From positions 13,783 to 77,782 of the forward strand of contig CAVGVB010000006.1 of assembly GCA_963632705.1 (NCBI GenBank): a stretch of DNA of 64,000 bases, given 5' to 3'. A program made the translations under genes and the position numbers. The stretch's first letter is position 1; every line of letters starts with the position of its first letter. The notes under the pieces are model-generated. The model had not been told where the DNA came from. It saw only the letters and a program-made list of their open reading frames with translations, and made no database searches. The DNA is from a bacterium. Its GTDB lineage: Bacteria; Bacillota; Clostridia; Oscillospirales; Oscillospiraceae. Positions 6,284 to 64,000 of this stretch are shown here, piece after piece.

Positions 6284-6310
6284 GGGTATTCCTCCTTGTC
6301 GAATTCTTAA

Positions 6311-39765: not shown

Positions 39766-39794
39766 AAGAGCAATCCGTCATCGAGGTGATTGTA

Positions 39795-43508: not shown

Positions 43509-43517
43509 ACTCAAACC

Positions 43518-46500
43518 TCACTTTCTGCAAAACGCCATGCGCGGCTCTTTCTCGACCTTGTGGTATTCGCCCAGTACATCCACGGTAAACTTTTCCAGAT
43601 TTTCCAGGGTTTTGATTCCCATACCGCCAATCTCGTAGGTATTGTCATGGTTACGGCAACCGATTGCGGCAGTATGGATATTCGCGCTGATGTAATACAG
43701 CATTTCCTGCTTTGCTTCGTAGGTGTCGGGAAGTGTGCTTTCCTTCTGCGCCTTTGTCAGCTTCAGCTTTGTCTTATGGGTCACACGGAGCAGATCATTG
43801 GGGTACAAGGAAAAGATAAAGTTCTTGTCGTCCATCTCCTTCCATTGTTCGTAGGGTTTATACGCCACACACGCCTTGTTGGGCAGCTCCTTTTTCAGCG
43901 TGTCAGCAATATAGATGGGTACAAAGTAATAGCCGTCGTTCTCCACATGGAACACATCGATACGCACCATGCTGTCGTTGTCCGCCACGCCTGTTCCCTT
44001 CAGAACGGAGACGTTCAGCGTCGTGGGTTCACACAGCTTGACCTTGTTGACGACAGGGCCGGGCGTACCGTCGCTTTTCGGCTTATGGAAAGGCTCGGCA
44101 AAAGCCTTGGCCCCGTTGCCGCCGTGCTTCTTTAATTGCTCCTTCAATGCCTCATAGAGCAGACGGTCACTCTGCGGCATATAGTAGTTGGCGATCTCGC
44201 CGGTCTTGGGGTCAAGCTTCAGGTCGGTCAACGCGCGCTTCACGACCACAACGCCGTCCTTCAGCGCCTTGGGACTCTTGACCGTCTCCTTGTGTGCCGC
44301 ACCTGTCACCTTGCGGCGGGGCATACGGGATACAAAGAGCTTCCGCACCGGAATATCGCCGTTGGCATACACAGGGAATCGCTGGGAGATCACAGCGCGG
44401 CGGGGATCCTCACCCAGACGGGCCTCCAACTCTCTGCGGAACTCCGGCCAGGGATAGGGGAACTGCCTCAGTACTTCGCCGGTATATTGGGAAACCGCCA
44501 TGCTGCCAGACTCTGTCTGCACATACTCGCATTCCCGCAGCGCGGCATAACGGCTCACCTGCTGGATCATTCCGTCTGTTGTGCAGGCGATCACCAGCGC
44601 GTCTACCGCGTGGTGCAGATCCCCGTTTTCGCGGATCTTGGTAATGCCCCAGCGCTTGCGCATATAGGAGGTGACAGCGCCGTTGACGGCCGTCACATGC
44701 TTCTTTCGCCCGCTGGCAAAATCGGCAAATTCCAGATGGTCGCTGATATAGTTCAGAAGGAAGCGGGACATGGTTTTGGTGTCCTGCAAATTCCGCTCCT
44801 TGAACTTCTTTTCGTCCTCAGTGGTAATGGTCTCCTTCAGCAGCCGCTGTTTTTTTCTGAAATCGCGGATGCTGCTCTCCACCCAGACAATGAAATCCTC
44901 CCGCCGCTTGCCCTGCAAATATTGCAGCGGCAGGCGGTTGCTCTTGTTGCGGTTTTCCTCCGTGAATACCAGCACCTTGTTTTTATAGCCATCGTCAAAG
45001 GAGATGCTGTACGGAATGATATGATCCACCTCCACATACCCCGGCTCAAAGAGCCGCTCAATGGAGATATGCCTTTGGGAATACGCGCACTCGCCGTGCT
45101 GCTCCTCCCACAGCTTGAATTTCACCAGATCCTGTCCCGTGGGGCATTCCTTGCCGTATTCCGTGCGGATGCGCTCCATGAGCCGCTCATTGCGGGCGCG
45201 GTTTTCGTCCATATCTCTTTTCATCTTGCTGCGCTCCGCGAAGTCGCGGGCCATTTCCCGTGCCAGCTCAATGTTGATAAAGGTCGGACTGCTGCCGCGT
45301 TCACGGATAATGGCGTTAAGGACTTTCACCGTTTGCGAGATTGCGCGCCGCACAACAGGGCTTGTCACATCCGCGAAATCCTCCTCCGTAGGGTGGAGAA
45401 GGCGTGTTCGTGTTTCACCGTCATGTCCCTTGAAATCATATCCCGCAGCGGCGCAGGCCTCGTCGTACTTCATTCCTTTTTCCAGAAAAGGGATCAGCTT
45501 ATCGCAGGCCTTTACGGAAAGGTGGCCGAACTTGCTGAAGCTCATCGTCTCGGCAATGTCGATCTCCATCTCTGACAGGCCGACCGCAGCCAAACGAGGA
45601 CGGATATTGACGGAAGTCTTGTACGTGGAGAGAACGCGTCCCAGCTCATTTTTCTGCTGGCGGGTCAGCCCGTCAAAATGGCTTTTGGAAAGCTTGTTGA
45701 AAGCCGCACGCATTTGGTGATAGGCTCTGAGATAGCAGAACTTTGTTTTCTTTTCCGCCTCCTCATAGTCCTCCGCATTCTTATAGGACACCACATTAAA
45801 CGTCGTACCTGCGGGGATTCCCAGCTCCTTGCGAATACGGGAGAAATTCAGGTCCTTCGTCTTATGTGCCAGCGCGATAAGCGCCTCCCGCTGTGCGCCG
45901 GAAAGCGGACTGCTTTCGCCGCTGCACATCAGCCGCAGGTGGTTGACATTCTGAAGCAGCGCAAAATACTCAAAGGAATAGCTGGCCTTTGCCGCACGCG
46001 GCTCTCCCGCCTCCAACGTACACTTGCCGATCATCTTCTCAATCTGACTCCCTCCATAGGGGCTGCCCTGTCCGGGGCCTTCGTCAAAGGAGCGCTGGCT
46101 CAGGAGTATTTCCAGATATTGCTCCTCCAGTTCCGCCGCCGCGAAAGTCTGTCCCTGTTCGCGCTGGGCCTTGAAGATGGCGCGGACTTCTTCCTCTACC
46201 ATGTCCCGTCCCACGGTCGAAAGGTATTTGCCGCCTTTGTTCCGCTTATTGGCGCTGTACTGCGGGTCTTTCAGCAGCATTTCGCCCACTGTGCGGTAGC
46301 CCTTTTCGGACATGAGCGCACGGTTGGCCGTTACGGCGGCAAGCAGCTCGCCATCCTCCTTCAATGTGCCGGACTTGCGGTTGGACTTGAAACCGCGCCG
46401 CTGCGCGATATGCAGAAGAATACGGGAAAATTCGGTGTTGGACACCGGGGTGTCCAGTGCCTTGACGCGCAGCGCGTAAATATCCTCCAGCTTTCCTTCG

Positions 46501-46781
46501 AAAAGGGTATCCAGCTCCGCTTGAGATACTACCTTTTCCACTATAAGAAGGCGGCGGATGCGTTCTAGGCGATGTTGGTGTCGACGCAGACGGCGGCGCG
46601 CACTTCTGGCTTCCCGCCGGGGTGCGGCCAAAGAATCGCCTGTTTTCGGCTGCTCGGCGGCATCAAAAACGCGGGAGCCCATGTTGATGATGCCGAAAGG
46701 CCTGTCCTCTCCATCCAGAGCGACGACCGCCCAGCCTACCGATGCAATACCAATGTCAAAACCGATAGCGTAGGGATACAT
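43518..46781 (-). CDS. cas9: Cas9, type II-C
   Basis: 1087 aa. RuvC-I motif GFDIGIASVGWAV, an arginine-rich bridge helix, and the HNH motif VEVDHIIPYSISFDDGYKNKVLV...NRNKSNR. No csn2 or cas4 is present in the locus. Confidence 0.97.
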   Translation of the reverse strand: MYPYAIGFDIGIASVGWAVVALDGEDRPFGIINMGSRVFDAAEQPKTGDSLAAPRREARSARRRLRRHQHRLERIRRLLIVEKVVSQAELDTLFEGKLEDIYALRVKALDTPVSNTEFSRILLHIAQRRGFKSNRKSGTLKEDGELLAAVTANRALMSEKGYRTVGEMLLKDPQYSANKRNKGGKYLSTVGRDMVEEEVRAIFKAQREQGQTFAAAELEEQYLEILLSQRSFDEGPGQGSPYGGSQIEKMIGKCTLEAGEPRAAKASYSFEYFALLQNVNHLRLMCSGESSPLSGAQREALIALAHKTKDLNFSRIRKELGIPAGTTFNVVSYKNAEDYEEAEKKTKFCYLRAYHQMRAAFNKLSKSHFDGLTRQQKNELGRVLSTYKTSVNIRPRLAAVGLSEMEIDIAETMSFSKFGHLSVKACDKLIPFLEKGMKYDEACAAAGYDFKGHDGETRTRLLHPTEEDFADVTSPVVRRAISQTVKVLNAIIRERGSSPTFINIELAREMARDFAERSKMKRDMDENRARNERLMERIRTEYGKECPTGQDLVKFKLWEEQHGECAYSQRHISIERLFEPGYVEVDHIIPYSISFDDGYKNKVLVFTEENRNKSNRLPLQYLQGKRREDFIVWVESSIRDFRKKQRLLKETITTEDEKKFKERNLQDTKTMSRFLLNYISDHLEFADFASGRKKHVTAVNGAVTSYMRKRWGITKIRENGDLHHAVDALVIACTTDGMIQQVSRYAALRECEYVQTESGSMAVSQYTGEVLRQFPYPWPEFRRELEARLGEDPRRAVISQRFPVYANGDIPVRKLFVSRMPRRKVTGAAHKETVKSPKALKDGVVVVKRALTDLKLDPKTGEIANYYMPQSDRLLYEALKEQLKKHGGNGAKAFAEPFHKPKSDGTPGPVVNKVKLCEPTTLNVSVLKGTGVADNDSMVRIDVFHVENDGYYFVPIYIADTLKKELPNKACVAYKPYEQWKEMDDKNFIFSLYPNDLLRVTHKTKLKLTKAQKESTLPDTYEAKQEMLYYISANIHTAAIGCRNHDNTYEIGGMGIKTLENLEKFTVDVLGEYHKVEKEPRMAFCRK

Positions 46782-50896: not shown

Positions 50897-52366
50897 TTAT
50901 TTATCATTTTTCTTCAGATACCGTACTTTCTTCACTGCTTCCCAATGCATCGCCTCTGCGTTGATCGGTGGCAAAGTGTCACCCCAGGGAACGGGAGCGT
51001 CAGCCATTTTTACCTCAACCGGCAATCCACCGAAGGGGCGCACGGCATTCGGAGTGGAGATACTCACAGAAGCATTTGGACTACCCTCAAAATGCAGATG
51101 TAATTTTTGACCATACACGGCTGACTCCCAGGGAATCCTGATCATACCCTGTCCGCGGCCTTCCTGTGCTACGATACCGTCACCTACGATGAGCTGAGGA
51201 AAATGAAGTTCGTAGAGTTTTTTGCAAAAGGGTGCTTTGTCCAGCTTTTGCGCAATGCGCCATAGGCGATCCATATTACGGCTGTACTCAATGCACTTTT
51301 TCGCACCATCCTTGCCGGAGATCCTGTGGCCGAAAATGTATTCTTTCTCCTCCAGCGACATATCTGTACACGCCTGGAGTACCGTCGCAAAATTCCGACG
51401 CAATATCCGCATGGGCGGGTGCGAATCCGATGGCGTAAAATTATCAGGCTCGTCGAGCAAGAAAAAGCCTAACTGCTCGCTGGAAACGCCAAATTCCTTC
51501 AACAATTTGAAAGCAAAATTTGAATAATCAGGCCCGCGGCATGGCGTTTTAAACTCATTTCCAAAGCAGACGATGGGTAACTCCCCGATATCCTTGTTCG
51601 CGCCCATACTCTGCTGCACAAATTTTTTCCGCTTCTGCAGAGCACCCTCGATTTCAATGTGAACGGGAACGCACCGTAGCGCGTTTTTTGTTTTCACCTG
51701 CTTGCTGTACATCAATTTATCATTCAAAATTTCGTCAATTTTCAGGTAATGCCGGTCTGGATGATCTGGGAACGAGCGAAAATCGTTCCACCGCAGTCCA
51801 CGGCACTCCGCGGGGCGCATGCCAGTGTACAATGAGATCAAAATGCCGCAGAAGCGCCCGTCCTCCAGTGCATGTTCCGCCGCATATAGCGCCAGACGTC
51901 CCTGCTGCCCAATTGTCAAGGCCCGCGGGCAACTATCGTTCAGCTCCGCGTTTGCCTCTGCCGGGGCTAAGATCCTCTGCATCATCAAAGTCGTAAGATT
52001 ATTCGACTTATCTCCTGCACGATTTTTTGAAAGGATGTTGTAAGCATGTCCGCATGTAGCGGCGTAGGAAAAGACGTCCCGCAATGACGAGATGATCGTC
52101 TTAACGGTCGCTTCTTGGTATTTGCATTCCTTAGCGACTTTAGAGACAGCGAGCAGAATATTTGCCGGAGTAATTTCGGAGATTGACATATCTAGATGGC
52201 CTGCAACCTTTTTGATGTAGTCATCGTATTGGCGAAGTGTCGTACAGGTTTCAAAACTGTATTGATCTCCCGCCTGGATCGCCCAGTGGCGATCTTTTGC
52301 GATAGAAATGCAGTGTTTTTTCCGGTAGCTCTTAAGGCTCAAATCTCCATCAGTCTTAGATTTCAT
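50897..52366 (-). CDS. tyrosine recombinase-like protein with a C-terminal extension of about 130 aa
   Basis: 489 aa. Arg-I in LYTGMRPAECRGLRW, a beta-hairpin Lys in KTKNALRCVPV, ILRRNFATVL (the R of HxxR is kept, the H is replaced by R), FGHR, and Tyr in CIEYS. Confidence 0.7.
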   Translation of the reverse strand: MKSKTDGDLSLKSYRKKHCISIAKDRHWAIQAGDQYSFETCTTLRQYDDYIKKVAGHLDMSISEITPANILLAVSKVAKECKYQEATVKTIISSLRDVFSYAATCGHAYNILSKNRAGDKSNNLTTLMMQRILAPAEANAELNDSCPRALTIGQQGRLALYAAEHALEDGRFCGILISLYTGMRPAECRGLRWNDFRSFPDHPDRHYLKIDEILNDKLMYSKQVKTKNALRCVPVHIEIEGALQKRKKFVQQSMGANKDIGELPIVCFGNEFKTPCRGPDYSNFAFKLLKEFGVSSEQLGFFLLDEPDNFTPSDSHPPMRILRRNFATVLQACTDMSLEEKEYIFGHRISGKDGAKKCIEYSRNMDRLWRIAQKLDKAPFCKKLYELHFPQLIVGDGIVAQEGRGQGMIRIPWESAVYGQKLHLHFEGSPNASVSISTPNAVRPFGGLPVEVKMADAPVPWGDTLPPINAEAMHWEAVKKVRYLKKNDK

Positions 52367-52367
52367 A

Positions 52368-53863
52368 TTAAGTCACCTTTGATTTTAGTTTTGCCGTGAA
52401 GAACATATTATCGTTTGATTTGATGCAAAGTAGTAAATCGCTTCCAGCTTCAAAATTGTGTTCTGAAATGCCGTCTATGTCGATTATGACATCACCACTG
52501 AAGCGACAGTTCGGGGTGGAGGTCATCACAGCATCTTCGTCTTTGCGGCTAATCTTGAACTCGGATACATCGTAGGGTGTTTCTGTCAAAGATATGGCGT
52601 ATTTATCCAGTATTGCGGCCAGCTTCGCCAACTCCCGCGGATCGTCAAAAGCGCAATAATTCCGCGCAAATACGCTCTCAGGTGCGTTGCCACACAAATA
52701 GTGAATTTCCTCTTCGTCACATCCGCAAGAATCCAGCGTCGATCTGAAAGTGGCTCTTAAAGTTCGTTCTGGATTCTTTGTCAAACTCTTTAGCTCCGGC
52801 TGTTTTGAGAAATCGAAGCTCTTGAAAAATCCTTTTAACCACCGATCAAACTCATCCGGACGCATTCTACGCGCCGCATTTTTGGGACTACGAATGAATG
52901 GCATATCCTCCTGTATGCATTGTGCGTTATCTTTTACCTTTCGGTAAAACGTTGCCACCGTCGGCGGCAGTGGCAACGTCCGCCGACGCGGCCAATTTAG
53001 CGCTTCAAGTCGATACACCTCACCTGTATGCTTTGCTTCTGCTGCAATTTCAATAATAATGATTCCTGTATAGGTGTTTGAGAAAGAAAATGCCCCCACG
53101 TCAGTGCGCATAGCTCACTGATCGTGATGCCTGTAGTCAACATCAAGATAAGGCCAAAATATAGGTAGCCCCGGCTGCTTTCAAGGTTCTCGGCGCAGGT
53201 TGCGACGATTTCCCGCACCTGAGCGTGAGTCAAGATGTTTTTCTCGAAATGCCTGCTCGCATCCCGCGGCCCAACAACTACGCGGCGGTTTCCCATGGCG
53301 AACGTGTCCACGAAATGGCTTGAGATCAAACATTGGGTCTCCTCGTATATAACCAATGCCCTCATAGCGTAGATCTGACCATTAATCTGATAGTCAGAAT
53401 AGCCTCCCTCGCGCAAATGTAAAGCAAATTTTTCTTGCGTAATTTCACAAAAAGGTATCCGGTCAAATTTGCTTACAAGCAGTTCAAATGAACGCATATA
53501 TGCTTTTTTCGTGGACGTTGACCACTTCATATACTGGGCGACCCAATCAAAGTCCGCTGCGATCAACGCGGCCAACGGCAGACTCTGAGCAAACTTTTTC
53601 CGTAACGAACATCCCGCTTTTGTATCGGGATCAAAGGCGCGCTGGAGGCATTCGGGAACCAGCGTGCGCACATACTCCTCCAGTCCAATTGCATCAGGTG
53701 CGCGGAAAATGTGTGCCTTGTGTTCATAGCAAACGCGCCCTGCACCATCGATGTGCACACCATCGCTAGAACGCAAGGAAAGAAATACTGTAGGACCCGC
53801 TTTACGCGCCTCTACGCGGTAGGTGATAGTTACGCCAAAGAAATCGATGCTGTTAAGCTTCAT
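52368..53863 (-). pseudogene. second tyrosine recombinase-like gene, frameshifted and with degenerate catalytic residues
   Basis: The track ORFs 52997-53863 and 52368-53111 overlap in different frames. Joining them near GGGGG/TTTTC (about 53075-53095) gives ...TTGITISELCALTWG(H/A)FSFSNTYTGIIIIEIAAEAKHTGEVYRL... Arg-I is replaced by Thr and LGH by CGN, while Tyr is kept (ARNY). The stop lies 1 nt before the downstream ATG. Confidence 0.6.
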
Positions 53864-53885
53864 ATATTAACCCTCATGCGGCACA

Positions 53886-54008
53886 GTGGCCGGAGGGGAG
53901 GTATTAAATTATTATCATCATCTTGGTGTCATTCTCCTTTCAAGCGAGTAATCGTACTCTCGCATATATTATTATAGTCTCTTCAGCGGCTCCCTCCCCT
54001 CCGTCCAC
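53886..54008. repeat. 16-bp inverted repeats flanking a 91-bp AT-rich spacer next to the recombinase start
   Basis: GTGGCCGGAGGGGAGG (53886-53901) against CCTCCCCTCCGTCCAC (53993-54008). 15 of 16 positions are complementary. Confidence 0.6.
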
Positions 54009-54260
54009 GCCCGCGCCTGCGGCAATGAAGCAGTAGTAAATAGCCTTTTTTTAGTAAAAAAAGACAAAGTCACCCTAAGGTAACCTTGTCTCAAAAACGT
54101 GTGGTATCTTCAAATCGGAAAGAGGATAAACTTCTTCCCCTAATAAAAAGCTTCGTAATTATACTTCTACGATACCATGTTTTTTGATCATGTCAACCCC
54201 TTTGGCGGGGCAAATTTTCCGTTCTTTATAGAAATGCTTTCGGATGCGTTTTTATGAGGC

Positions 54261-54328: not shown

Positions 54329-56851
54329 TTACCATCCTTCCTCCCACTCATCCCACGCTTCATCGAGGTCGTCGTAGCCACCGTCCTCGTAGAGGTCCTC
54401 CGGGTCGCCGTAGTCCTCGCGGAGACTGTAGCCGCTGCCGGGACCGGTGTCGGTGCTGCCGCCACCGTAGTTGAATGTTTGGGGCGGTTTCGGTTTCTGC
54501 TGTTGCTGCTGGGCTTGGTAGGCGGCGATTTGCGCTTCTAATTCTTCGCGTTCTGCGATCATATCCGGCAAATCATCCCGCAAATCTGTGATCTCAGAAG
54601 CAAATTCTCCATCATAATCCGCAGGGATCAACTGGAGCAGCTCCAGCGCCTGCTTATAGGAAGTGGAGTTGAATAGTTGCGTCAGTGAGTAAGCCTCTGC
54701 GTAAACCCGCAGTACCGGTGTGTCTTTGTAGTTGCCCAACTCCTCCAAATAAGGTTGCGCCATGTACGGTTGGTGCTGCCGCAGCCTCATAATAGCTTTA
54801 CGGTAGATGGATGCATGCAATTGGAGAGTCATATCCGTAAGTAAATCGTTGCCTTGCTTTCGGAATGAGCCCAAATCTCCTGAACTCTTTAGAAGGTCAA
54901 TTCCGCCGCGGAGGGAGTCCTCCGTGTTTGTGTTCAATGCAACGCCAGCCTTGGCTACAGTCAGCAATGCAGGCTGCTCGGCTATGTTTTCGGGTACGTC
55001 TTCTGCCAGCTCCACCGCTTTTTTGTAGTTACCTTTCGCAAACAGCTCCGCCGCAGTCTGATACTGTTGTTCCCAAGCGGCAAGCCGCTTTGCCTGCGAA
55101 TGGCGGCTCAATAGAACGCCGCCCACAACCATCACCGCCAATGCCGCAACTACGAGAAAGGGAGCAAAGTTCCTTTTCCTCCGTGGCGGCGTCTCTTGCG
55201 GTGCTTCATCCGGCGTACCGCCTGCAGGTGGAGTCTGTTCCGGTGTCTCTGCAGCAGCTGAAGTTTGGAGCTTGGTGGTGGGTGTGCTCTCCGGTTTCAC
55301 AGGTTTGGGCTGTTCCTGCGGCTGCTGCCCCTTGGGCTGCGGTTTTGGCTCGGCGGGCTCTTTTCCCACAGGCTCTTGTGGTTTGGGGAGTATCTCCAGC
55401 ACACACTTGGTTTTCTCCGGCGGCCACGGAGCAGTGTCACGAGTATAGTTACCTACAGCATGAACAACGCCTTCTTTCAGCTCATTGTTTTTACCGTAGG
55501 GCACACGCACATGGTCACCCTTCTTCACAGGCAGACCATTGGTCAGGTAGGAATAGCGCCGGCCATGGTCCACCCGCACGAAGCAGTAGCGATACATCGG
55601 CGTGCTATCATCCACGTCCGCGTATTCTTCCATGAGGGAATCAAACTCATCCGCGTCTTCATGCCACTCCTCTCGCGGCAGCGGATTTGACTGCAGCAGC
55701 GCGTATAAATGATCGGCCAGCTTTGTTTTTCTCCGTTCAAAGGCAGCTTGGATCAGGTATAAGTGCAGCTTGCATACATAACGACTGCGGAATACCATCT
55801 CCGCAAGGACATCATCCACCTGAATAGCGTCAAGCAGCGGAGCTATGGCATCTTCATCAAATTCCTTGTAGTACCAAAGGAAGTCAAGTATATAAAAGAA
55901 ATCCTCAGAAAGGAAATCGTCTTGCAGCGGCTCCTGCTCTTCCGGCAGAGAGCGCCACATGGCGATAGCACGCTGCGGGTCGGCGGTGTAGATGCCTTTC
56001 AGCAGGTCCGAAGCGTACATATTGAAGAGATCCTCGATTTTGTACTCGTCCTTCAGCTCCGGAAATTGCTCCACGATCCGTGCCACGGCGGAGTCTTCGT
56101 AGTCCATGGGGTCGACCTTTTCGCCGCGAAGCCGTTTCCAATGCGTGGTGAAGTATCCTAAGTAACGATTGTCGCGGGTATCCGCTTTTTCGTCTGTGCA
56201 TCCTGCGAAGAACGCTGCCAAGGGCAGAATGCTGCATAAAGCATCCTCTATGGCACTCTCCGTAAGATTTTCGCCGTCAAAGGCACGGCCCATATAGAGG
56301 TGTCCGTCCTGCATGGAGGGTTCTTCTTTGTCGTAGGGCGGCAGTTGTTCGATCATCAACTCCCAGAACTTGCCGCAGGCCTTATCCGTCAGCTGGCCTT
56401 CCGGCTGGAACAGAGGCTGCCTGGAACGAACAGCCTTTTCTATTGTCGCGCTGTTGCTGATGCCACTGAAATCCGCCAAATCGTTGGCCAGCGCCCGATA
56501 GGGATAGAAAACGCGTCCGATAACGGAGTCATCTACCTCGTCGTCCCACGCTCCATTCCACAGGCCACTTTCGATGAGTCCAGTAGAAACTTGACAGAGT
56601 ACTACCCTCCATGCGAAGGCTTTTGATTCCGGATATGTAGGCAGCAGCCTTGAGACCGCATCCACGAATGTGAGGGCGGCATTGCGCGTAGTCACGGCGG
56701 CATTTTTCCACCACGCATTCTGTTGTTCACGTGCGGCTTTGCGCTGCTCAAGGATGCGGCGCGGGATAGGCCCGCTGTCGCCGCACCAGCCACATTCCCA
56801 TATGCTTTTGTGCAGAATTACATTCGGCGCGCCACAGGATGGACATTTCAT
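54329..56851 (-). CDS. 840-aa zinc-ribbon / single-pass membrane / TPR-like protein, function unknown
   Basis: N-terminal CxxC...CxxC (MKCPSCGAPNVILHKSIWECGWCG) and a cytoplasmic region of about 430 aa. A PriA-N-terminal-like segment follows (YRYCFVRVDHGRRYSYLTNGLPVKKGDHVRVPYGKNNELKEGVV). Then come a Pro/Gln-rich linker, a TM helix (FAPFLVVAALAVMVVGGVLL), a helical-repeat ectodomain and an acidic tail. The RBS is aagggggtg. Confidence 0.75.
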   Translation of the reverse strand: MKCPSCGAPNVILHKSIWECGWCGDSGPIPRRILEQRKAAREQQNAWWKNAAVTTRNAALTFVDAVSRLLPTYPESKAFAWRVVLCQVSTGLIESGLWNGAWDDEVDDSVIGRVFYPYRALANDLADFSGISNSATIEKAVRSRQPLFQPEGQLTDKACGKFWELMIEQLPPYDKEEPSMQDGHLYMGRAFDGENLTESAIEDALCSILPLAAFFAGCTDEKADTRDNRYLGYFTTHWKRLRGEKVDPMDYEDSAVARIVEQFPELKDEYKIEDLFNMYASDLLKGIYTADPQRAIAMWRSLPEEQEPLQDDFLSEDFFYILDFLWYYKEFDEDAIAPLLDAIQVDDVLAEMVFRSRYVCKLHLYLIQAAFERRKTKLADHLYALLQSNPLPREEWHEDADEFDSLMEEYADVDDSTPMYRYCFVRVDHGRRYSYLTNGLPVKKGDHVRVPYGKNNELKEGVVHAVGNYTRDTAPWPPEKTKCVLEILPKPQEPVGKEPAEPKPQPKGQQPQEQPKPVKPESTPTTKLQTSAAAETPEQTPPAGGTPDEAPQETPPRRKRNFAPFLVVAALAVMVVGGVLLSRHSQAKRLAAWEQQYQTAAELFAKGNYKKAVELAEDVPENIAEQPALLTVAKAGVALNTNTEDSLRGGIDLLKSSGDLGSFRKQGNDLLTDMTLQLHASIYRKAIMRLRQHQPYMAQPYLEELGNYKDTPVLRVYAEAYSLTQLFNSTSYKQALELLQLIPADYDGEFASEITDLRDDLPDMIAEREELEAQIAAYQAQQQQQKPKPPQTFNYGGGSTDTGPGSGYSLREDYGDPEDLYEDGGYDDLDEAWDEWEEGW

Positions 56852-56871: not shown

Positions 56872-59268
56872 TTAAGATACAATGTTCATCAATTCGGCAA
56901 AGCTATCAACGACAGAGTATGTTACGCTCTCGCTGCTGATCGCGGCAAAGTGCGCTTTTGCACAGGCGATTTTTGCGTTTTCCACGCCGCGCAGTTCGGC
57001 AGCATCACTGTTGCCCTTCGTTTCGACGATGAAGTAGATATGTTTGACGCTGCCTTCATTGAAAGCGATCGCCCAGTCCGGATTATACTTGCCGACAGGT
57101 GTGGAGATGAAAAATCCGCCTGGCAGCTTCACGTATACCGCGACCTTCGCATTGACATCCAATTCACCGGCAAACTGTTTCTCGTTCTCGGAGTCGTAGA
57201 TAATGTGGCTGTACAGGCTGCGATTTGCCTCCATTGCATTCAAGCCAAGTTTACCACGAAGATTGGCGCTGGTAAAGATGTCTGTGTCGTAAGCCGCATC
57301 CAGCTTGTTATAGGTAATGTGTTCAATGATCTGTGTAGCCATCTGGTCATTGATGATTTTTGCTGTTTTCAGAATGAACTCCTCCGGATTCAGGCGGAAC
57401 ATGGCAAACTTCTGCGAGGCCATGCGCTGCAGGATCGCTGCAATCGTTGCGCGGGTCAACTTTGTCTCCTCCACCAGCTTTCCAATGAGGTCATAGCGGA
57501 CACTGCCCAACGGTGCGGTTTTGGGTGCCTCCTGGTCGGAGAGCGTCCTGCGGAAGCCGTGGCCCTGTTCCAGTTGCTCCTTGGAGTCCAAATGCGCGGC
57601 TTGTTCGCCGTACTCCAATTTGACCGTCACTGTGGTCACATTCAGCTTTTCATCCAGCATTTGCACAGCGTTCTCAATGAGCTTTTCCTTATCAAACCGC
57701 ACAGTATAGAAGGACTTGTGATTGATACGATTCCAGAGCTCCACAAATTCCTTCTTGTGCAGCTTTTCCGGGTCAATACGCGCTTCCACATTGTTGCCGT
57801 GAGCATCTTCCGGACGCATGGAGTGACTGTCGTAGATAGAAGACAGCACTTGCACCACTGCGGCGGTGCAATCCTTGACTTCCTCCGCCACCTGCACTGT
57901 ACCGCTGGCCTTGTCGGCATAATACTTATCCGTCAGTTCGCCGCGCTTGACATAGCCGTTGCTGACAAGGTCTTCGTAGATAGCCGTAGCCAGCTCCGGC
58001 GTGACCTTGACTTCGCTGCCGTTGGCATCGGTAAGGACTTTACCAAGGAACAACTGCGTATCGACCTTCTTAGGCCGGTCAGCCAAGGATTCCGCCAAGC
58101 CGGATTGCAGCGCCTCCGCGAACTTGCCGAACTCCATGTCGGTGATCAACGTCAGCTTATTCAGTTCCTGCACCTCGCTGCCCAGCACGCTTTCGTCCAT
58201 ACGTTCGCCCTGCTGATCAACGCACAGCCGCAGACCGCGCCCGATCTCCTGTCGGCTGCGGATGTCGGAGTCACTCTGCTTTTTCAGCGTACATATCTGG
58301 AAGACATTGGGGTTGTCCCAACCCTCCCGCAGCGCGGAGTGGGAGAAAATGAATCGCACCGGCTCGTCGAGACTCAACAGCCTCTCTTTGTCCTTCATAA
58401 TGAGGTCGTAGGCGTCCGCGTCATCGGAAGTCTGCGTCTTACGGTCAACTTTACTCTCCACAAAGCGGGCTTTCTTGCCCTTCTTCTTGTCGATGGAAAA
58501 GTAGCCCTGGTGGGTCGTCCTGGCGCTGAGCTTGTCCAGATAGCGGAGATAGGACTCGTCGCCGATTTTCCGCTGCAGCTCACTTACAACGCTGTTGTAC
58601 TCCTCCTCAAACATCTGAGCGTACTCGCCGTTGCGGCCTGTGTCGTCATCGCCGTCATAGCTGCGGTATTTGGACACCTCGTCAATGAAAAACAGGCTCA
58701 ATACCTTAATGCCCTTACGGTAGGCGGCGCTTTCCGGGGCATCGATCTCGTTGATCATGCTGAACATGTTGCCGCCGCGCTCACAACCCAAGTCGGCACG
58801 AGTAAATCCGTTGACAGGCGCAAAGGCGCAGGGAGCAGCGTTTTCCACTGTCATAAATCCGGGCATTAGCTCAGAAGTCACGTTGGACTTAAATAACGCT
58901 TTTCTCCGTACCCACTCCGCACACTCGCGGGAGATGGCTTTTTGCGTGAACTCATTGCGAAGCCGTATTTCAAATTCGCTTCCATACAGCGTTTTTTCAC
59001 GGTTCAGGCGAGGAATGTAGAATTCTCTCTGCGCCTTTTCCGGCTGCTCCGCCAAAAAGGTCGGGGATGTGAAAATAAACCGCAGGGCGTCTATACCTTC
59101 CAGCTGAGTTTTTAACTCTTCAAAGGCATAGACAGAAAAACACGCCGCTGCGATCGAGAGCTTGCTGCCGGGCTCCAGCTTTTCTTTTAACTCGTCTGAG
59201 AGCTTGTCCGTAATATTGTTGATGATCTTCATAACCCCACCTGCACTTTGCATTTTATCTTTAGTCAT
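56872..59268 (-). CDS. Res-like helicase C-lobe plus PD-(D/E)xK nuclease, with an unrelated N-terminal domain and no ATPase N-lobe
   Basis: 798 aa. Helicase motifs IV-VI are present (VRFIFSHSALREGWDNPNVFQICTL...RQEIGRGLRL), as is a C-terminal nuclease motif (YNPDWAIAF...IYFIVETKG). There is no Walker A or DExH anywhere. Residues 1-190 or so resemble the N-terminal domain of a different defence-helicase family. An alternative start is at 59232 (MKIINN...). Confidence 0.7.
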   Translation of the reverse strand: MTKDKMQSAGGVMKIINNITDKLSDELKEKLEPGSKLSIAAACFSVYAFEELKTQLEGIDALRFIFTSPTFLAEQPEKAQREFYIPRLNREKTLYGSEFEIRLRNEFTQKAISRECAEWVRRKALFKSNVTSELMPGFMTVENAAPCAFAPVNGFTRADLGCERGGNMFSMINEIDAPESAAYRKGIKVLSLFFIDEVSKYRSYDGDDDTGRNGEYAQMFEEEYNSVVSELQRKIGDESYLRYLDKLSARTTHQGYFSIDKKKGKKARFVESKVDRKTQTSDDADAYDLIMKDKERLLSLDEPVRFIFSHSALREGWDNPNVFQICTLKKQSDSDIRSRQEIGRGLRLCVDQQGERMDESVLGSEVQELNKLTLITDMEFGKFAEALQSGLAESLADRPKKVDTQLFLGKVLTDANGSEVKVTPELATAIYEDLVSNGYVKRGELTDKYYADKASGTVQVAEEVKDCTAAVVQVLSSIYDSHSMRPEDAHGNNVEARIDPEKLHKKEFVELWNRINHKSFYTVRFDKEKLIENAVQMLDEKLNVTTVTVKLEYGEQAAHLDSKEQLEQGHGFRRTLSDQEAPKTAPLGSVRYDLIGKLVEETKLTRATIAAILQRMASQKFAMFRLNPEEFILKTAKIINDQMATQIIEHITYNKLDAAYDTDIFTSANLRGKLGLNAMEANRSLYSHIIYDSENEKQFAGELDVNAKVAVYVKLPGGFFISTPVGKYNPDWAIAFNEGSVKHIYFIVETKGNSDAAELRGVENAKIACAKAHFAAISSESVTYSVVDSFAELMNIVS

Positions 59269-59751: not shown

Positions 59752-59774
59752 TAAAAACAGTCCGATTCGGAGGT

Positions 59775-59975
59775 TCACTCCGTATCGGGCTGTTTTTCGC
59801 GGTCGATGGTTTCATTGATCGCGCGGTAGATGAATGCGTTGGTAGACTCCCCGTTGGCGGCGGCGTGCGCCTGAATGCGAGACTTGTTGCCCTTTGGGAC
59901 GCGGAAAGTGATGCTTTCCAGCTTCTCCTCACGGTATTTTTTATTGGCGCGCAGCTGCGCTTCTGTCTGTGCCAT
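59775..59975 (-). CDS. ribbon-helix-helix (Arc/CopG-like) protein
   Basis: 66 aa. ...ITFRVPKGNKSRIQAHAAANGESTNAFIYRAINETI. Its own promoter is TTGCTT, 17 bp, TATAAT on the minus strand at about 60010-60045. Confidence 0.7.
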   Translation of the reverse strand: MAQTEAQLRANKKYREEKLESITFRVPKGNKSRIQAHAAANGESTNAFIYRAINETIDREKQPDTE

Positions 59976-60046
59976 GTGAGCTCCTCCCCAAAGATGCTTT
60001 TATCATTATAACGAATTATCTTATGTGAAGCAAGAACTATTGCGTT

Positions 60047-60131
60047 GGTGTGACCTCACATATTTTACAAATTATCTTTCTCATTTTTGGTATGTTCGAC
60101 TATTGATGTGAGGTCACATATATGCTATACT
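60047..60131. promoter_or_regulatory. twin palindromic operators and a rightward promoter
   Basis: TGTGACCTCACA (60049-60060) and TGTGAGGTCACA (60107-60118). The plus-strand promoter is TTGATG (60103-60108), 17 bp, TATACT (60126-60131), and it overlaps the second palindrome. Confidence 0.55.
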
Positions 60132-60299
60132 GTCCTTACAAAAGAAAAACAACGGCAGTTGCAGGGAGTTGGCGCTCCCTACAACCTGCGCAGGTGATTA
60201 CCGCACCTACACAACGGACGAATCCGCACCGCATAGGGTCATTATACCCGTTTGACCCTGATTTTGCAAGCGGAATCCGGTCTATTTGTCATACTCATG

Positions 60300-60343
60300 A
60301 CACCGTGTAGTGCCTCGGCCTGCACGGTGTTTCTCTTTTCTCA
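60300..60343 (+). terminator. terminator-like hairpin in the leader upstream of the recombinase operon
   Basis: acaccgtg-(15 nt)-cacggtgt followed by ttctcttttctc. Confidence 0.45.
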
Positions 60344-60366
60344 TTTCACCGAAAGGAGGAAAACGC

Positions 60367-60582
60367 ATGAGTCAAGATCGTATTCCGTTTCCCGCGTCCC
60401 CGTCATGTTCTCCGTCCCCAGCTCATAGGCTGTGGCGAGGGGGAATGAACATGGAAGTCAAGCACACCCATCCGCAGTATGAGGATCCACAGGCGCGGCA
60501 GCAGCAGATGAAGGATGCCTATGCCGCCTGCATGGCGAAGCTGCGGGCACTGCGGACGGCCCAGCGGGAAAAGGCCGCATGA
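60367..60582 (+). CDS. small protein preceding the serine recombinase
   Basis: AGGAGG, 7 nt, then the ATG at 60367. 71 aa. The stop overlaps the recombinase ATG (ATGA). Confidence 0.5.
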   Translation: MSQDRIPFPASPSCSPSPAHRLWRGGMNMEVKHTHPQYEDPQARQQQMKDAYAACMAKLRALRTAQREKAA

Positions 60583-62045
60583 AAACGGACGCGGTATACG
60601 CCCGCCAGTCTGTGGAGAAAAAGGACAGCCTGTCCATCGCGGGACAGATCGATCTGTGCCGCCGCACGGCAGGCGGCGGGGAGCTGCGGGTCTACAAGGA
60701 CGCCGGTTACTCCGGCAAAAACACCGAGCGCCCCGCCTTCCAGCAGCTGATGAAGGACATCCGCGCCGACCGCATCGGCACGCTGTACGTCTACCGGCTG
60801 GACAGGTTTTCCCGCAGCGTGGCGGACTTCGGCCAGCTGTGGGAGGTGCTGCAGGAGCACCATGTGGAGTTCGTGTCGGTCAACGAGAACTTCGACACCA
60901 AGACGCCCATGGGGCGGGCTATGCTGCATATCATCATGGTGTTCGCCCAGCTGGAGCGGGAGACCACCGCCGAGCGCGTGCGGGACAACTACTACCGCCG
61001 CGCGGCGCTGGGCGCATGGCCCGGCGGCCCGGCGCCCTACGGCTTCAACAATGGCAGGGCTCGCGGACGGGATGGCCGTGAGGTGCCGTCCCTCATCCCC
61101 AACGACAGGGCGGCGGTGGTGCAGCGGATCTTTCAGGAGTACGCCGCGGAGGGCATGTCGCTGGGACTGCTGGCCCGCAAGCTGACCGCCGAGGGCATCC
61201 CCGCCCCCAAACGCACTACCTGGGACAACGTGACGCTGTCCCGCCTGCTGCACAATCCGGCCTATGTGATGGCGGACGAGCAGGTGCGGCTCCACTATCT
61301 GGGGCAGGGCGTGGAGGTCACCAGCCCGCCTGAGGCCTTCGACGGCGTACACGGCGTGCTGCTGGTGGGCAAGCGGGAGGCCAACGCGCGGAAGTACACC
61401 AAGACCGAGAACCATCGGGCGTCCGTGCTGAACAGCGTGGGCGTCGTGGCATCGCCGCTGTTTCTGGCGGTACAGGCAAAGCTGGCACACAACCGTCAGG
61501 TGGGCAACAGCGGCAAGGGCAAGCACACCTGGCTCTCCGGCCTGCTGAAATGTGCCAAGTGCGGCTACAGTCTGTCCGTCGTGGCGGACAAGTCCTATCG
61601 CTATCTGGCGTGCAGCGGACGGTACAACATGAACCGCTGCGACGCCGCTATCCACGTCAAGCTGGCGGAGCTGGAAGCGGTAGTGCAGACGGAGATCGAA
61701 AAGCTGCTGGCCCAGTGTCCGCAGGAGCCCGTTGTGCCGAAGCCGGAGGAGGACAGCTATACCCAGCGGCTGCTGGAGCTGGATCGTCGCGCCGAACGCC
61801 TGATGGACGCCTTTGCCGAGAGCGAGGATCTGCCCGCGTCCTATCTGCAGAAGGCGCTGGGGAAGATCGAAAAGGAGCGTGAAGCGCTCCGGCAGGCCCA
61901 GCGGCGTGAAGCAGGCCGCGTTCCGCTGCCGGAAAAGCTGGTGTTCAATGAACTGTCCTTTGAGGAGAAAAAAGCCGTAGCCGCCCAGTTCATCCGCCGC
62001 ATCGAGGTGGCGGAGGACAGCGCGGAGATCATCTGGGCGGTGTAA
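60579..62045 (+). CDS. large serine recombinase
   Basis: 488 aa. Resolvase catalytic domain (AVYARQSVEKKDSLSIAGQ...YRLDRFSRS), a recombinase domain, and a zinc ribbon (CAKCGYSL...CSGRYNMNRC). Confidence 0.95.
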   Translation: MKTDAVYARQSVEKKDSLSIAGQIDLCRRTAGGGELRVYKDAGYSGKNTERPAFQQLMKDIRADRIGTLYVYRLDRFSRSVADFGQLWEVLQEHHVEFVSVNENFDTKTPMGRAMLHIIMVFAQLERETTAERVRDNYYRRAALGAWPGGPAPYGFNNGRARGRDGREVPSLIPNDRAAVVQRIFQEYAAEGMSLGLLARKLTAEGIPAPKRTTWDNVTLSRLLHNPAYVMADEQVRLHYLGQGVEVTSPPEAFDGVHGVLLVGKREANARKYTKTENHRASVLNSVGVVASPLFLAVQAKLAHNRQVGNSGKGKHTWLSGLLKCAKCGYSLSVVADKSYRYLACSGRYNMNRCDAAIHVKLAELEAVVQTEIEKLLAQCPQEPVVPKPEEDSYTQRLLELDRRAERLMDAFAESEDLPASYLQKALGKIEKEREALRQAQRREAGRVPLPEKLVFNELSFEEKKAVAAQFIRRIEVAEDSAEIIWAV

Positions 62046-62077
62046 ATCAAATTTGATACGAATGAGGAGTAACCATT

Positions 62078-62281
62078 ATGAACGACGAACGTAAAACAAC
62101 CGTCGAAGTGAACATGACCGATGACGAGTGGATCGAGCTGCTGTGCTTGTGCGAGGACATCAACCTGACGCCGGAGGATCTAGCTGTGGCATTCTGCCAG
62201 GAGGTCATCCGCCAGCAGGCGCTGCTGCGCATCATCGCTGCCGCCATTCGCTCCGACATGGCCAATCAACTCAACCGATAA
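62078..62281 (+). CDS. small acidic hypothetical protein
   Basis: 67 aa with an AGGAG RBS, lying between the recombinase and the GHKL gene. Confidence 0.5.
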   Translation: MNDERKTTVEVNMTDDEWIELLCLCEDINLTPEDLAVAFCQEVIRQQALLRIIAAAIRSDMANQLNR

Positions 62282-62298
62282 CGGGAGGAATTACACCT

Positions 62299-63819
62299 AT
62301 GAAAATCGAAAACAAAACGCCTATTGCGGAGGAGATCATCCGCAACAATCCCACCGGCCACGGCCTGTTCGCCGGTATCGGGGACAATTTCAACAGCGTG
62401 GCACAGGTCATCTGCGAGCTGATAGACGACGCGGTCTCCAACCTCCACGCCAACAAAGACGATTCCGAACTGTCCATGACGGTAGTGTTGTCGCTGGAAA
62501 ACCTGGGCGATGCGGTGGAGATCACCGTGACGGACGGCGGCACGGGCATTGCCGACCTCGGCAGTGCCCTGACCATCGCTTGCCGGGACGGTGCGCAGAC
62601 GCCGCTGAACGAACACGGCTTCGGATTAAAGCACGCATTGGCCTCCTGCGACAGCAGCCCTGAACAGAAGTGGAGTATTCGCACCCGCACGAAGGCCGAC
62701 GCAGCGGCAAATCAGTACCGCGAGGTCAAGGCGCCGTATTCCATGGGCACGTCTGAGCTGGACAAGCCCATGAAGGTGCGGTTCTATTCAGGTACGGGCG
62801 ACCTGCCCCACCCCACCGGCACGTCGATCTCTGTCCGCTGCCCTATGGCGAAGTTCCGGACGGTGAAGCCTGACCGTAAGGCGGCACCCTCCGACTTCCA
62901 CAATCTGGTGCGGTACATCATTGAGGAGCTGCGGTACGTCTACGCAGGCATTCTAGCAAATACATCCATCACCATGGAGGTGTGGGAGATCAGCGGCGGT
63001 GAGGAAGCGCAGCATACGCTGACGCCGTTGCTGCCGGTGTGGGAGGAGGGCAGCGTGAAGGATTACGGTGATATTCCCTGCAACCTGGGCGGCGGCCCGC
63101 TGACGATTCGTTGTAAGTACGGCAACATCCTGAAGAACCCGTCCAACGCCATCTACTACAAGTGCAACATGGAGTCCAGCGGCGTGGAGCTGCGCATCAA
63201 TGGACGCGCCATCGAGCACGGAATGTTTGACCGCGTCTGGGGCGAGGCCATTCACCCCAGTCAGAACCGCTTTCTGGTACAGGTGGATCTTATCTCGGAC
63301 AACCCCGCCGCGCTGCCTGCCACGAAGAACACGAAGACCTCTTTTTGTGAAGCCGATCCTCGTCTGAAGAACCCCCTCAGTTGGATCGCCTCCTACGTCC
63401 CCGCCCCGGCCAAGGATGTGGACTCGATGGAGCTGCGGTACGTCAAGGAGCTGACTGCCAAGCGGGAGAACGACCCTACTGCCCTGCGGGTGAGCCGTGA
63501 GGAGCCGGTATTCCAGAAGATCGGGCTGAAGGCCAAGGTCGATCTGTTCGTGGGCTACATCGACCGCGTGACCATCTACGAGGCCAAGGTAGGAAAGACC
63601 AAGGCGCTGGACTTGTACCAGCTCCGCATGTATGTGGATGGCTGCGCCCTGGACAACAAGCCTGTGGATGAAGCCGTGCTGATCGCCAAGCGCCACTCGG
63701 CAGAGGTAAAGGAGCTGCGGGACATTCTGAACACCCTGACCGCACCTGACGGACGTCCCTACAACTTTCGGTTGGCCACCTGGGACGAAGAAGGTATCGT
63801 GATCCGCCAGAGCGCGTGA
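62299..63819 (+). CDS. GHKL-type ATPase fused to a PD-(D/E)xK nuclease-like C-terminus
   Basis: GGAGGA, then the ATG at 62299. Bergerat-fold motifs ELIDDAVSN, DGGTGI and GFGLKHA. The C-terminus carries VDLFVGYIDRVTIYEAKVGK (D...E-x-K). 506 aa. Confidence 0.7.
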   Translation: MKIENKTPIAEEIIRNNPTGHGLFAGIGDNFNSVAQVICELIDDAVSNLHANKDDSELSMTVVLSLENLGDAVEITVTDGGTGIADLGSALTIACRDGAQTPLNEHGFGLKHALASCDSSPEQKWSIRTRTKADAAANQYREVKAPYSMGTSELDKPMKVRFYSGTGDLPHPTGTSISVRCPMAKFRTVKPDRKAAPSDFHNLVRYIIEELRYVYAGILANTSITMEVWEISGGEEAQHTLTPLLPVWEEGSVKDYGDIPCNLGGGPLTIRCKYGNILKNPSNAIYYKCNMESSGVELRINGRAIEHGMFDRVWGEAIHPSQNRFLVQVDLISDNPAALPATKNTKTSFCEADPRLKNPLSWIASYVPAPAKDVDSMELRYVKELTAKRENDPTALRVSREEPVFQKIGLKAKVDLFVGYIDRVTIYEAKVGKTKALDLYQLRMYVDGCALDNKPVDEAVLIAKRHSAEVKELRDILNTLTAPDGRPYNFRLATWDEEGIVIRQSA

Positions 63820-63826
63820 GAACAGT

Positions 63827-63863
63827 CGGGGAAAAGTGTGCAATCATTGCACACTTTTCCCCG
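63827..63863. repeat. palindromic hairpin family, copy 3 (terminator-like)
   Basis: cggggaaaagtgtgcaatcattgcacacttttccccg, 8 nt after the stop of the GHKL gene. Confidence 0.9.
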
Positions 63864-63881
63864 ACAGGAAGGAGTGAGAAT

Positions 63882-64000
63882 ATGGCCGATGAAAGCACCA
63901 TCATCCGCTGGACTTACACCGCAAAATCAGGTACAATGGGAGCAGAAATTTACAAAAGAGAAAGGACGACCGACCATGACATATACTTCCGCACAGGCCA
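63882..64000 (+). CDS. hypothetical protein, 5' end only
   Basis: GGAAGGAG, then the ATG at 63882. MADESTIIRWTYTAKSGTMGAEIYKRERTTDHDIYFRTG... runs off the window. Confidence 0.4.
   Translation, partial: MADESTIIRWTYTAKSGTMGAEIYKRERTTDHDIYFRTG

Follow-up and report, generated by a model that had tools for sequence, protein, structure and literature searches.

A paraMORC3-like GHKL ATPase fused to a PD-(D/E)xK nuclease, carried as a compact cassette in gut Oscillospiraceae

Results

The ATPase-nuclease gene and its surroundings

We have analysed a stretch of 64,000 nucleotides (nt) from a bacterium of the Oscillospiraceae (assembly GCA_963632705.1, contig CAVGVB010000006.1, positions 13,783 to 77,782 of the forward strand), here called the window, in which a GHKL ATPase fused to a PD-(D/E)xK nuclease is encoded next to a small acidic protein (orf67) and a large serine recombinase, behind a divergent repressor gene and a structured leader RNA (Table 1). 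The ATPase-nuclease gene is intact, occupies window positions 62299..63819 on the plus strand, and encodes a protein of 506 amino acids (aa). The start codon was assigned to the ATG at 62299, which has a GGGAGGA ribosome-binding site ahead of it. A longer open reading frame (ORF) of 563 aa with a GTG start (62128..63819) was also listed, and was rejected as an over-extension since both the homologues and the ribosome-binding site set the start at 62299. The 506-aa protein shows 97% identity to a protein cluster that comprises 2769 sequences.

Table 1. Features of the ATPase-nuclease locus, in window coordinates.
Feature	Position	Strand	Remarks
66-aa ribbon-helix-helix (RHH) regulator	59775..59975	-	divergent from the operon; weak Pfam matches to HicB, Arc and RHH
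Divergent promoter region (putative)	60002..60131	.	inverted repeat around operon promoter TTGATG-17-TATACT; read from the sequence
Structured 5' leader RNA (predicted)	60124..60338	+	three-stem junction with an intrinsic terminator (attenuator, ~60300-60338) at its end
Antisense promoter and predicted countertranscript	60148..60269	-	-35 TTGCAA at 60269-60264, -10 TATAAT at 60246-60241
71-aa ORF	60367..60582	+	AAGGAGG ribosome-binding site; ATGA overlap, i.e. translational coupling to the recombinase
Large serine recombinase, 488 aa	60579..62045	+	Resolvase, Recombinase and Zn_ribbon_recom domains
orf67, 67-aa small acidic helical protein	62078..62281	+	GAGGAG ribosome-binding site; conserved ORF
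GHKL (Bergerat-fold) ATPase domain	62299..62868	+	residues 1-190; motifs, HATPase_c/HATPase_c_3 matches, Foldseek
Transducer (S5-like middle) domain	62869..63393	+	residues 191-365; Foldseek alignments, invariant R303, N323, T342 and K346
PD-(D/E)xK nuclease domain	63394..63819	+	residues 366-506; ends with the stop codon; E401, D415, E428-x-K430, Q441xxxY445
Near-perfect 18-bp hairpin	63826..63866	.	just past the stop codon, no U-tract; coincides with the right end of the shared cassette

Domain architecture and conserved residues

A sequence-only reading of the window had described a 506-aa protein with the Bergerat-fold motifs in order and a D...E-x-K nuclease signature in the C-terminal region. 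This description was upheld, with ELIDDAVSN starting at residue 40, DGGTGI at residue 79, GFGLK at residue 107 and VDLFVGYIDRVTIYEAKVGK at residue 414. The ATPase motifs read E40xxxD44, D79xGxG83, N104-E-H-G-x-G-L-K111 and T175. The E-x-x-x-N motif that had been read in ELIDDAVSN needs a correction: the glutamate (E40) was correctly identified, whereas the asparagine that had been counted lies eight residues further on, and the canonical position, four residues after the glutamate, is Asp44.

Conservation was assessed in an alignment of 44 proteins from bacteria and archaea, 22-82% identical to the query. Fourteen positions (E40, D43, D79, G83, N104, G107, G109, K111, T175, R303, N323, T342, K346 and D415) were invariant in all 44 proteins, and the nuclease residues E428, K430, Q441 and Y445 were kept in at least 90% of them. 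Motif II (DxGxG), the lid of motif III (G-x-x-G-x-G type) and the threonine of motif IV are represented by the conserved residues D79, G81 and G83; G107, G109 and K111; and T175, respectively. Position 44 in motif I is Asn in 38 of the 44 members and Asp in the query and five others; ExxxN is the motif of the family, and Asp44 is a conservative variant in the query copy. K346 is the putative phosphate-sensing lysine.

Pfam searches with the query alone gave HATPase_c matches that were all below threshold. When 37 family members were searched, HATPase_c or HATPase_c_3 was matched in 27-29 of them and PDDEXK_1 (RecB/Cas4 family) in five, with a best E-value (E) of 1.3e-6. The general fold was supported by an AlphaFold (AF2) model of the whole protein (predicted local distance difference test, pLDDT, 88), for which Foldseek returned the ATPase and transducer modules of SMCHD1, MORC3/4, Hsp90, GyrB and a MutL-family protein (E ~1e-13) in alignments of ~375-460 columns, gaps included, that span the ATPase and transducer domains. 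A separate AF2 model of the C-terminal domain (residues 365-506; pLDDT 93) exhibited the PD-(D/E)xK fold, with NucS/EndoMS as the top Foldseek match (E 4e-5), followed by AF1548, Can2, McrC and BamHI. The C-terminus, for which the possibility of a non-nuclease fold had been raised, is thus a nuclease domain. A PDB profile search with this domain yielded NucS only (E 0.07), the catalytic D, ExK and Q being in register, and no PDB sequence matched the whole protein at E <= 10. No Pfam match to MutL_C was found in the query or in the 37 members, the C-terminus being a PD-(D/E)xK domain instead, and no modification-reading domain was seen in the AF2 model. The analysis confirmed that the 506-aa protein consists of a GHKL ATPase, an S5-like transducer and a NucS/RecB-like nuclease, with the catalytic residues conserved except for the N44D variant.

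The small acidic gene orf67

The product of the gene preceding the ATPase-nuclease gene had been described as acidic, in agreement with its 13 acidic (D/E) and 6 basic (K/R) residues and its isoelectric point (pI) of 4.2. The short gaps to the co-oriented upstream serine recombinase were also correctly noted: 32 nt separate the recombinase stop from the orf67 start, and 17 nt the orf67 stop from the ATPase start. orf67 was considered a real gene because three divergent lineages (51-98% identity) retain its reading frame with 22 invariant columns. Homologues in the same identity range are found directly upstream of the ATPase gene in almost all copies with 78% identity or more to the query (loci L002-4, L015-L027 and L037; relatives are numbered with the prefix L). 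Viewed from the side of orf67, the 506-aa ATPase gene comes next in 10 of the 10 places listed, all of them one conserved chromosomal site on long contigs, and orf67 is indexed in 4750 blocks of the sequence collection. Its family is a narrow one of 137 proteins, none of them less than 47% identical, and orf67 is absent from all ATPase relatives at 50% identity or below. Locus L001 lacks window positions 62053..62239, so that most of orf67 is gone, with a 95%-identical ATPase left intact. The co-occurrence of the two genes, proposed as a check in the sequence-only reading, therefore holds for nearly all close copies and breaks down in the distant relatives and in L001.

Apparent orf67 deletions in L147, L160 and L111 were rejected, since the long GTG ORF had been picked in these loci, and L001 is the only real deletion. 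Likewise, small upstream ORFs in relatives at 50% identity or below were dismissed, as the shared peptides were translated conserved leader DNA and none of the ORFs was conserved. No similarity of orf67 to Pfam families, PDB entries or the RHH family was found; a weak match to SinI was obtained (E 0.084). A guess from its strand-helix-helix pattern that orf67 could be an RHH antitoxin was rejected, given an hhalign probability of 0.4% against the RHH family and no support from Pfam or PDB. With regard to a type II toxin-antitoxin system, orf67 gave no match to an RHH, helix-turn-helix (HTH) or AbrB fold and is not obligatory, being absent in most of the family and deleted in L001. We consider orf67 a clade-specific accessory gene, whose most plausible role is that of a regulator or inhibitor.

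Repressor, leader RNA and antisense promoter

Homologues of the RHH regulator (63-68 aa, 44-98% identity) are encoded divergently upstream of the ATPase or of a recombinase in ~32 Oscillospiraceae loci, and a weak match to PF10723 (RepB-RCR_reg) was found for the regulator in relatives. Promoter-like sites are located on the plus strand at 60103..60131, with a TG extension, and on the minus strand at 60029..60002. The inverted repeat GTGACCTCACAT (~60050-60065) and ATGTGAGGTCACAT (~60107-60122), on either side of the operon promoter, is probably the operator of the RHH repressor.

The leader of ~200 nt exhibits 70-83% nucleotide identity across loci with ATPases that are only 42-50% identical. 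In 27 leader sequences 96.7% of the cells were paired, and 15 pairs had double changes. The covariation score was 0.288, as compared to 0.095 for shuffles (0 of 500 reached 0.288) and 0.04-0.06 for slid controls, and the minimum free energy of the window copy was -80.2 kcal/mol (z = -5.85). The leader had no match in Rfam 15 at E <= 1. Its strongest "unpaired" conservation coincides with a promoter on the opposite strand, of the form TTGnnn-17-TATA(A/C)T, which is kept in 27 of the 27 aligned leaders ~80 nt ahead of the P2 hairpin and a T-run. From this conserved combination of promoter, hairpin and T-run we therefore predict a countertranscript of ~85 nt (~60234 to 60148, minus strand), complementary to the leader and ending at the P2 hairpin and U-tract (60186..60157). 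An antiterminator may form by pairing of CCUACAC with GUGUAGG; no compensatory change was found for this pairing, the single variant sequence (L014) being not compensatory.

A motif scan for the leader gave at least 120 metagenome loci, many of them labelled human gut. In leader-anchored loci with enough downstream sequence the ATPase-nuclease is the first or second gene in ~28 of ~47, and it is the commonest first gene. Other genes behind the leader encode serine or tyrosine recombinases, an SLH surface protein, a lipoprotein, HTH-nuclease-like proteins, or PemK together with a RecD-like helicase. In one metagenome locus (L137) a 402-aa protein with GHKL motifs, 27% identical to the query, starts 58 nt past the leader motif and represents a further ATPase lineage, divergent from the first, with the same control cassette. 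Judged from these comparisons, the conserved partners of the ATPase-nuclease in Oscillospiraceae are the divergent repressor and the predicted leader/antisense RNA cassette.

The recombinase block and the arrangement of the cassette

The 71-aa ORF was called as a gene in L001 and travels with serine recombinases down to 42-48% identity (L011-14, L029 and L127). It has no Pfam match and may encode either a regulator or a factor for recombination directionality. The GC fraction is 0.66 in the recombinase gene, compared to ~0.48 upstream and 0.58-0.61 in the ATPase gene.

As found by megablast, the orf67/ATPase cassette (62045..63860) occurs without the recombinase in L019, L002-4 and L210-219, of which L210-219, L019 and L002 are otherwise collinear with the window. 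The commonest version of the cassette is situated at the same chromosomal site on each of the 200-280 kb contigs, with the 71-aa ORF and the recombinase absent, and in the order small HTH gene (minus strand), leader (83% identical to that of the window), orf67, ATPase and DUF6557 gene. Since the leader directly precedes orf67 in this version, the 71-aa ORF and recombinase block (~60358..62077) behaves as an insertion between leader and orf67, and the recombinase is not a conserved neighbour of the ATPase. As to the proposal in the sequence-only reading of a mobile-element cargo operon, the mobile and defence-like context was borne out (see below), and the recombinase had to be given up as its conserved component. 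In L019 the cassette lies behind a metallophosphatase/NACHT-like gene of 1002 aa (STAND-like NTPase), with AbiE-like and Fic genes near.

A 4.1-kb block (59753..63897) is common to the window, L001 and L017, and its surroundings are rearranged. Window positions 52032..54215 (L001 3972..6162) immediately precede the RHH cassette in L001 and L017, and are inverted in the window with ~5.5 kb of other genes in between, which suggests a rearrangement around the recombinase-bearing block. Homology to other contexts stops at 63860-63897, close to the hairpin that follows the ATPase-nuclease gene and may serve as its terminator. L001, L017 and L018 have ~195 extra nucleotides just past this hairpin (~63890).

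Family spread and genomic context of relatives

At E <= 1e-3 the family comprises 922 clusters (50% identity), nearly all of 480-530 aa, and is thus of modest size. Members were found in Bacillota (Oscillospiraceae, Lachnospiraceae), Actinomycetota, Coriobacteriia, Saccharibacteria, Acidobacteriota, Chloroflexota, Bacteroidota (Flavobacterium), Planctomycetota, Leptospira, haloarchaea, Thaumarchaeota and methanogens, showing a sporadic distribution across bacteria and archaea. Public records name them only "ATP-binding protein" or "hypothetical".

Relatives are located near integrases, toxin-antitoxin pairs, STAND-like NTPases and restriction-modification (R-M) genes, so that the association with mobile or defence contexts expected from the window is seen in other genomes as well. 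A distant clade is 25-29% identical to the query. In five of its loci (L058, L059, L061, L063 and L082) an N6_N4 methyltransferase gene lies directly upstream on the same strand, and other distant loci contain Dam-type methyltransferases, DpnI-like enzymes, or an EcoRV endonuclease with its methyltransferase. DndB is another of the restriction- or defence-type neighbours in distant and intermediate relatives, and the latter adjoin PLD-helicase-DUF3427, DUF1016, DUF2397/2398, AAA_14/DUF4143 or plain housekeeping genes. Homologues 31-32% identical to the query are encoded on two Lactiplantibacillus plasmids, in one of which a Sau3AI-family endonuclease gene is situated ~1.1 kb upstream with one small ORF between. 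No methyltransferase was detected by HMM (hidden Markov model) or motif in the 64-kb window (C5 enzymes by motif only), and loci L001-L041 all lack an N6/N4 or Dam methyltransferase within 10 kb. A family-wide conserved partner gene was rejected, as neighbour clustering gave only the RHH regulator (Oscillospiraceae) and methyltransferases (part of the distant clade). The neighbourhood pattern, as read from the gene content, is that of a laterally mobile gene associated with restriction or defence.

Enzymes of GATC-type R-M families, with the specificity taken from the family names, are found near the relatives in L059, L082, L061-L063, L066, L080 and plasmid NZ_CP127092.1 (L207), and include DpnI-like enzymes, a possible DpnII fusion, Dam-type methyltransferases and Sau3AI. 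They recall the MutL/MutH/Dam connection, and may simply reflect the commonness of such systems.

A phage origin of the cassette was rejected, since only 2 leader matches were found in 2.9 million IMG/VR contigs and the ATPase in one unverified virome contig. The latter (L209; MT836507.1, 'UNVERIFIED: Bacteriophage sp.', 12.6 kb) stems from a human faecal virome, and its positions 5530..7050 hold a 78%-identical copy of the ATPase-nuclease gene. Occasional packaging of the island could explain this, as could misclassification of the record.

Other genes in the window

Cas9 (1087 aa, with HNH, RuvC and Cas9 lobe domains) and Cas1 are encoded at 42609..46781 on the minus strand, and an AAA_14/DUF4143 ATPase gene lies at 39786..41072. 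The Cas9/Cas1 end of the window has the appearance of a defence island. The minus-strand gene at 56872..59268 encodes a protein of 798 aa that resembles type III restriction endonucleases. Models match it only from ~profile position 390 (residues 182-797), the first 180 residues being different, and no mod methyltransferase was found near the gene; the protein is probably a fusion or a remnant. Its neighbour at 54329..56851 (minus strand) encodes an 840-aa protein with an N-terminal zinc-ribbon-like CxxC...CxxC motif, a Pro/Gln-rich linker, a transmembrane segment and an acidic tail, for which neither Pfam nor PADLOC gave a match.

Discussion

The 506-aa protein is most likely a single-chain ATP-dependent DNA nuclease of the paraMORC3/GHKL-Shedu-like class, whose gene belongs to a compact cassette found on integrative elements and small islands in gut Oscillospiraceae. 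With moderate confidence we propose that it acts as an ATP-gated dimeric clamp-nuclease that restricts incoming DNA, and that in this methyltransferase-less clade it is silenced by the repressor, the antisense attenuator and perhaps orf67. On binding of ATP the GHKL domains would dimerise into a clamp, as in MutL, MORC and GyrB, and capture of DNA by the clamp would license cleavage of foreign DNA (of a phage, a plasmid or a rival element) by the two nuclease domains. Both the ATPase and the nuclease activity would be needed, as for the Vibrio cholerae protein VcSduA. Because no cognate methyltransferase is found nearby in this clade the enzyme is potentially toxic to its own host, and it would be held down by a divergent RHH or HTH repressor together with a leader attenuator driven by the ~85-nt antisense RNA, with orf67 probably as a further clade-specific regulator or inhibitor.

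Several observations weigh against this proposal. The Mg-binding Asn of motif I is replaced by Asp44 in the query protein (N44D). The link to Shedu is architectural only: PF14082 (DUF4263) was matched in 0 of 37 members at E <= 1, the PADLOC models including Shedu, a search that the sequence-only reading had recommended, gave no match to the protein at E <= 1, and no Shedu chain was present among the 50 Foldseek matches listed for the nuclease domain. On the basis of the negative DUF4263 and PADLOC results membership in Shedu was rejected. Furthermore, the genes next to the Oscillospiraceae copies are of mixed kinds and often have housekeeping functions, and a methyltransferase is within reach in only ~11 of 26 distant loci and in an operon in only five. 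Finally, the promoter/leader/antisense cassette also precedes recombinases, which fits a role in the life cycle of the element as well as one in defence.

Such a life-cycle or establishment role would imply a burst of nuclease in a naive cell, before the repressor and antisense RNA accumulate, by which resident DNA or rival elements are attacked, or integration or excision is aided together with the recombinase, and no standing defence. The occurrence of the cassette in front of both serine and tyrosine recombinases speaks for it, as do the position of the ATPase as the commonest first gene behind the leader, the weak RepB-RCR_reg match of the RHH regulator, and the general similarity of repressor plus countertranscript attenuation to plasmid establishment control. 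We nevertheless consider it unlikely, since relatives beyond Oscillospiraceae that lack the cassette keep the protein intact in restriction-type neighbourhoods, the commonest version sits at one fixed chromosomal site without a recombinase, and the cassette, being found ahead of surface-protein and lipoprotein genes too, resembles a general-purpose expression module. The methyltransferase-then-ATPase-nuclease operons in five distant loci raise a different alternative, namely that the protein is the restriction subunit of an R-M system with its methyltransferase elsewhere, or a modification-dependent (type IV-like) enzyme that needs none, with the methylation state of the DNA determining whether it is cut. 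The Dam, DpnI, DpnII-like, EcoRV and Sau3AI genes near other relatives are in line with this, and paraMORCs were assigned mainly to R-M systems by Iyer et al. (PMC2292703). For the present clade this seems quite unlikely in view of the missing methyltransferases around L001-L041 and in the window, and of a model without a modification-reading domain.

A toxin-antitoxin or addiction pair, in which a labile orf67 antitoxin neutralises a toxic ATPase-nuclease and thereby stabilises the island, could account for a small acidic ORF of a narrow family only 17 nt upstream of a nuclease, and from the side of orf67 the coupling is strict at the one chromosomal site listed. The absence of orf67 from every relative at 50% identity or below, its clean deletion in L001 next to an intact nuclease ORF, and its dissimilarity to known antitoxin folds make this very unlikely. 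A further reading, suggested by the nearest structures (the ATPases of GyrB and the MutL family, and NucS/EndoMS, a mismatch endonuclease), is that of a non-canonical DNA repair factor in which a MutL-like ATPase is fused to a NucS/EndoMS-like mismatch nuclease. We regard it as highly improbable: the gene is patchily distributed in mobile or variable islands, has no MutS-like or clamp-related partner, and is predicted to be tightly repressed, unlike a housekeeping gene.

Returning to the ATP-gated clamp-nuclease, its control region invites a more speculative proposal, which we put forward tentatively and hold to be rather doubtful: that a circuit of the plasmid copy-control type, without an Rfam family, has been repurposed by human-gut Oscillospiraceae islands to gate a methyltransferase-less ATPase-nuclease as well as site-specific recombinases. 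If so, most of the nuclease would be produced in a burst when a naive cell is entered, or upon titration of the control RNA, orf67 would be a dedicated protein safety catch, and the whole would be a three-layer nuclease "armed on arrival" instead of a constitutive defence gene. Confirmation of the leader/antisense cassette would add a new regulatory RNA family, and would show how mobile islands silence a dangerous nuclease and recombinases.

The family is very common in human-gut metagenomes, yet is unseen by the PADLOC and Shedu models, and naming it as paraMORC3-type closes an annotation gap and gives the catalogues of defence systems a candidate sub-family. As a compact one- or two-gene system it also offers a view of how a GHKL clamp licenses a nuclease, which bears on the biology of MutL and MORC.

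Comparison with known systems

The sequence-only reading could not assign the two-gene layout to a named system. This no longer holds, as the protein fits paraMORC3 and resembles VcSduA. paraMORC3 proteins were described as GHKL and S5 domains with a C-terminal RecB-like nuclease of the E-D-ExK type, spread widely and sporadically with prevalence in Proteobacteria and Bacteroidetes, and encoded partly in R-M operons and partly standalone (Iyer, Abhiman & Aravind 2008, PMC2292703). The present architecture, compared with the published description only, fits paraMORC3 feature for feature: a GHKL domain, an S5/transducer domain and an E-D-ExK nuclease (here E401, D415, E428 and K430), in a family that is likewise sporadic in bacteria and archaea and either R-M-linked or standalone. 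It differs in that the present branch is centred on gut Oscillospiraceae, and in that the 67-aa partner and the repressor/antisense-RNA cassette are outside the 2008 description.

Among precedents only VcSduA has experimental support. This V. cholerae protein combines GHKL and middle domains with a DUF4263 nuclease and protects against phages; the mutants E27A (ATPase) and K557A (nuclease) lose protection (Adams et al. 2025, PMC12137116). Proteins of this kind, formerly called paraMORC3, are now Shedu type I-D (PMC12137116), and GHKL-Shedu is listed as type 1D (Gu et al., bioRxiv 10.1101/2023.08.10.552793). In VcSduA and in the present protein alike, one polypeptide holds the GHKL ATPase, the middle clamp domain and the PD-(D/E)xK nuclease, and by analogy the present protein most likely works like VcSduA. 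In contrast to the DUF4263 nuclease of VcSduA, the nuclease domain here is NucS/RecB-like with a QxxxY motif, and the protein is shorter, with the catalytic Lys at position 430 as compared to 557 in VcSduA.

MutL, MORC, SMCHD1, GyrB and Hsp90, the best whole-chain structural matches, share the Bergerat fold and the transducer. The present protein lacks the C-terminal metal-binding endonuclease/dimerisation domain of MutL (DQHA(X)2E(X)4E), as well as a CW domain, a coiled coil, a hinge and a Toprim partner, and has a fused PD-(D/E)xK nuclease instead. For residues 366-506 NucS/EndoMS is the closest solved structure and the closest sequence profile, with D...ExK...Q aligned; the identity is only 15-17%, and the N-terminal DNA-binding domain and the PCNA-binding motif of NucS are missing.

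Countertranscript-driven attenuation combined with a Cop-type repressor controls the replication of pT181, pIP501 and pAMbeta1, and such a combination underlies the control of plasmid copy number and establishment. The present control region shares with these plasmids a small gene for a repressor, alternative hairpins and an intrinsic terminator in the leader, and a conserved antisense promoter within it. It differs from them in that the repressor gene is divergent, the antisense RNA is predicted, the leader RNA belongs to no Rfam family, and the genes controlled encode a nuclease and recombinases on chromosomal islands instead of Rep. Set against these known systems, the enzyme is an unannotated branch of a known kind, and the fresher parts are the leader/antisense cassette and the clade-specific partner.

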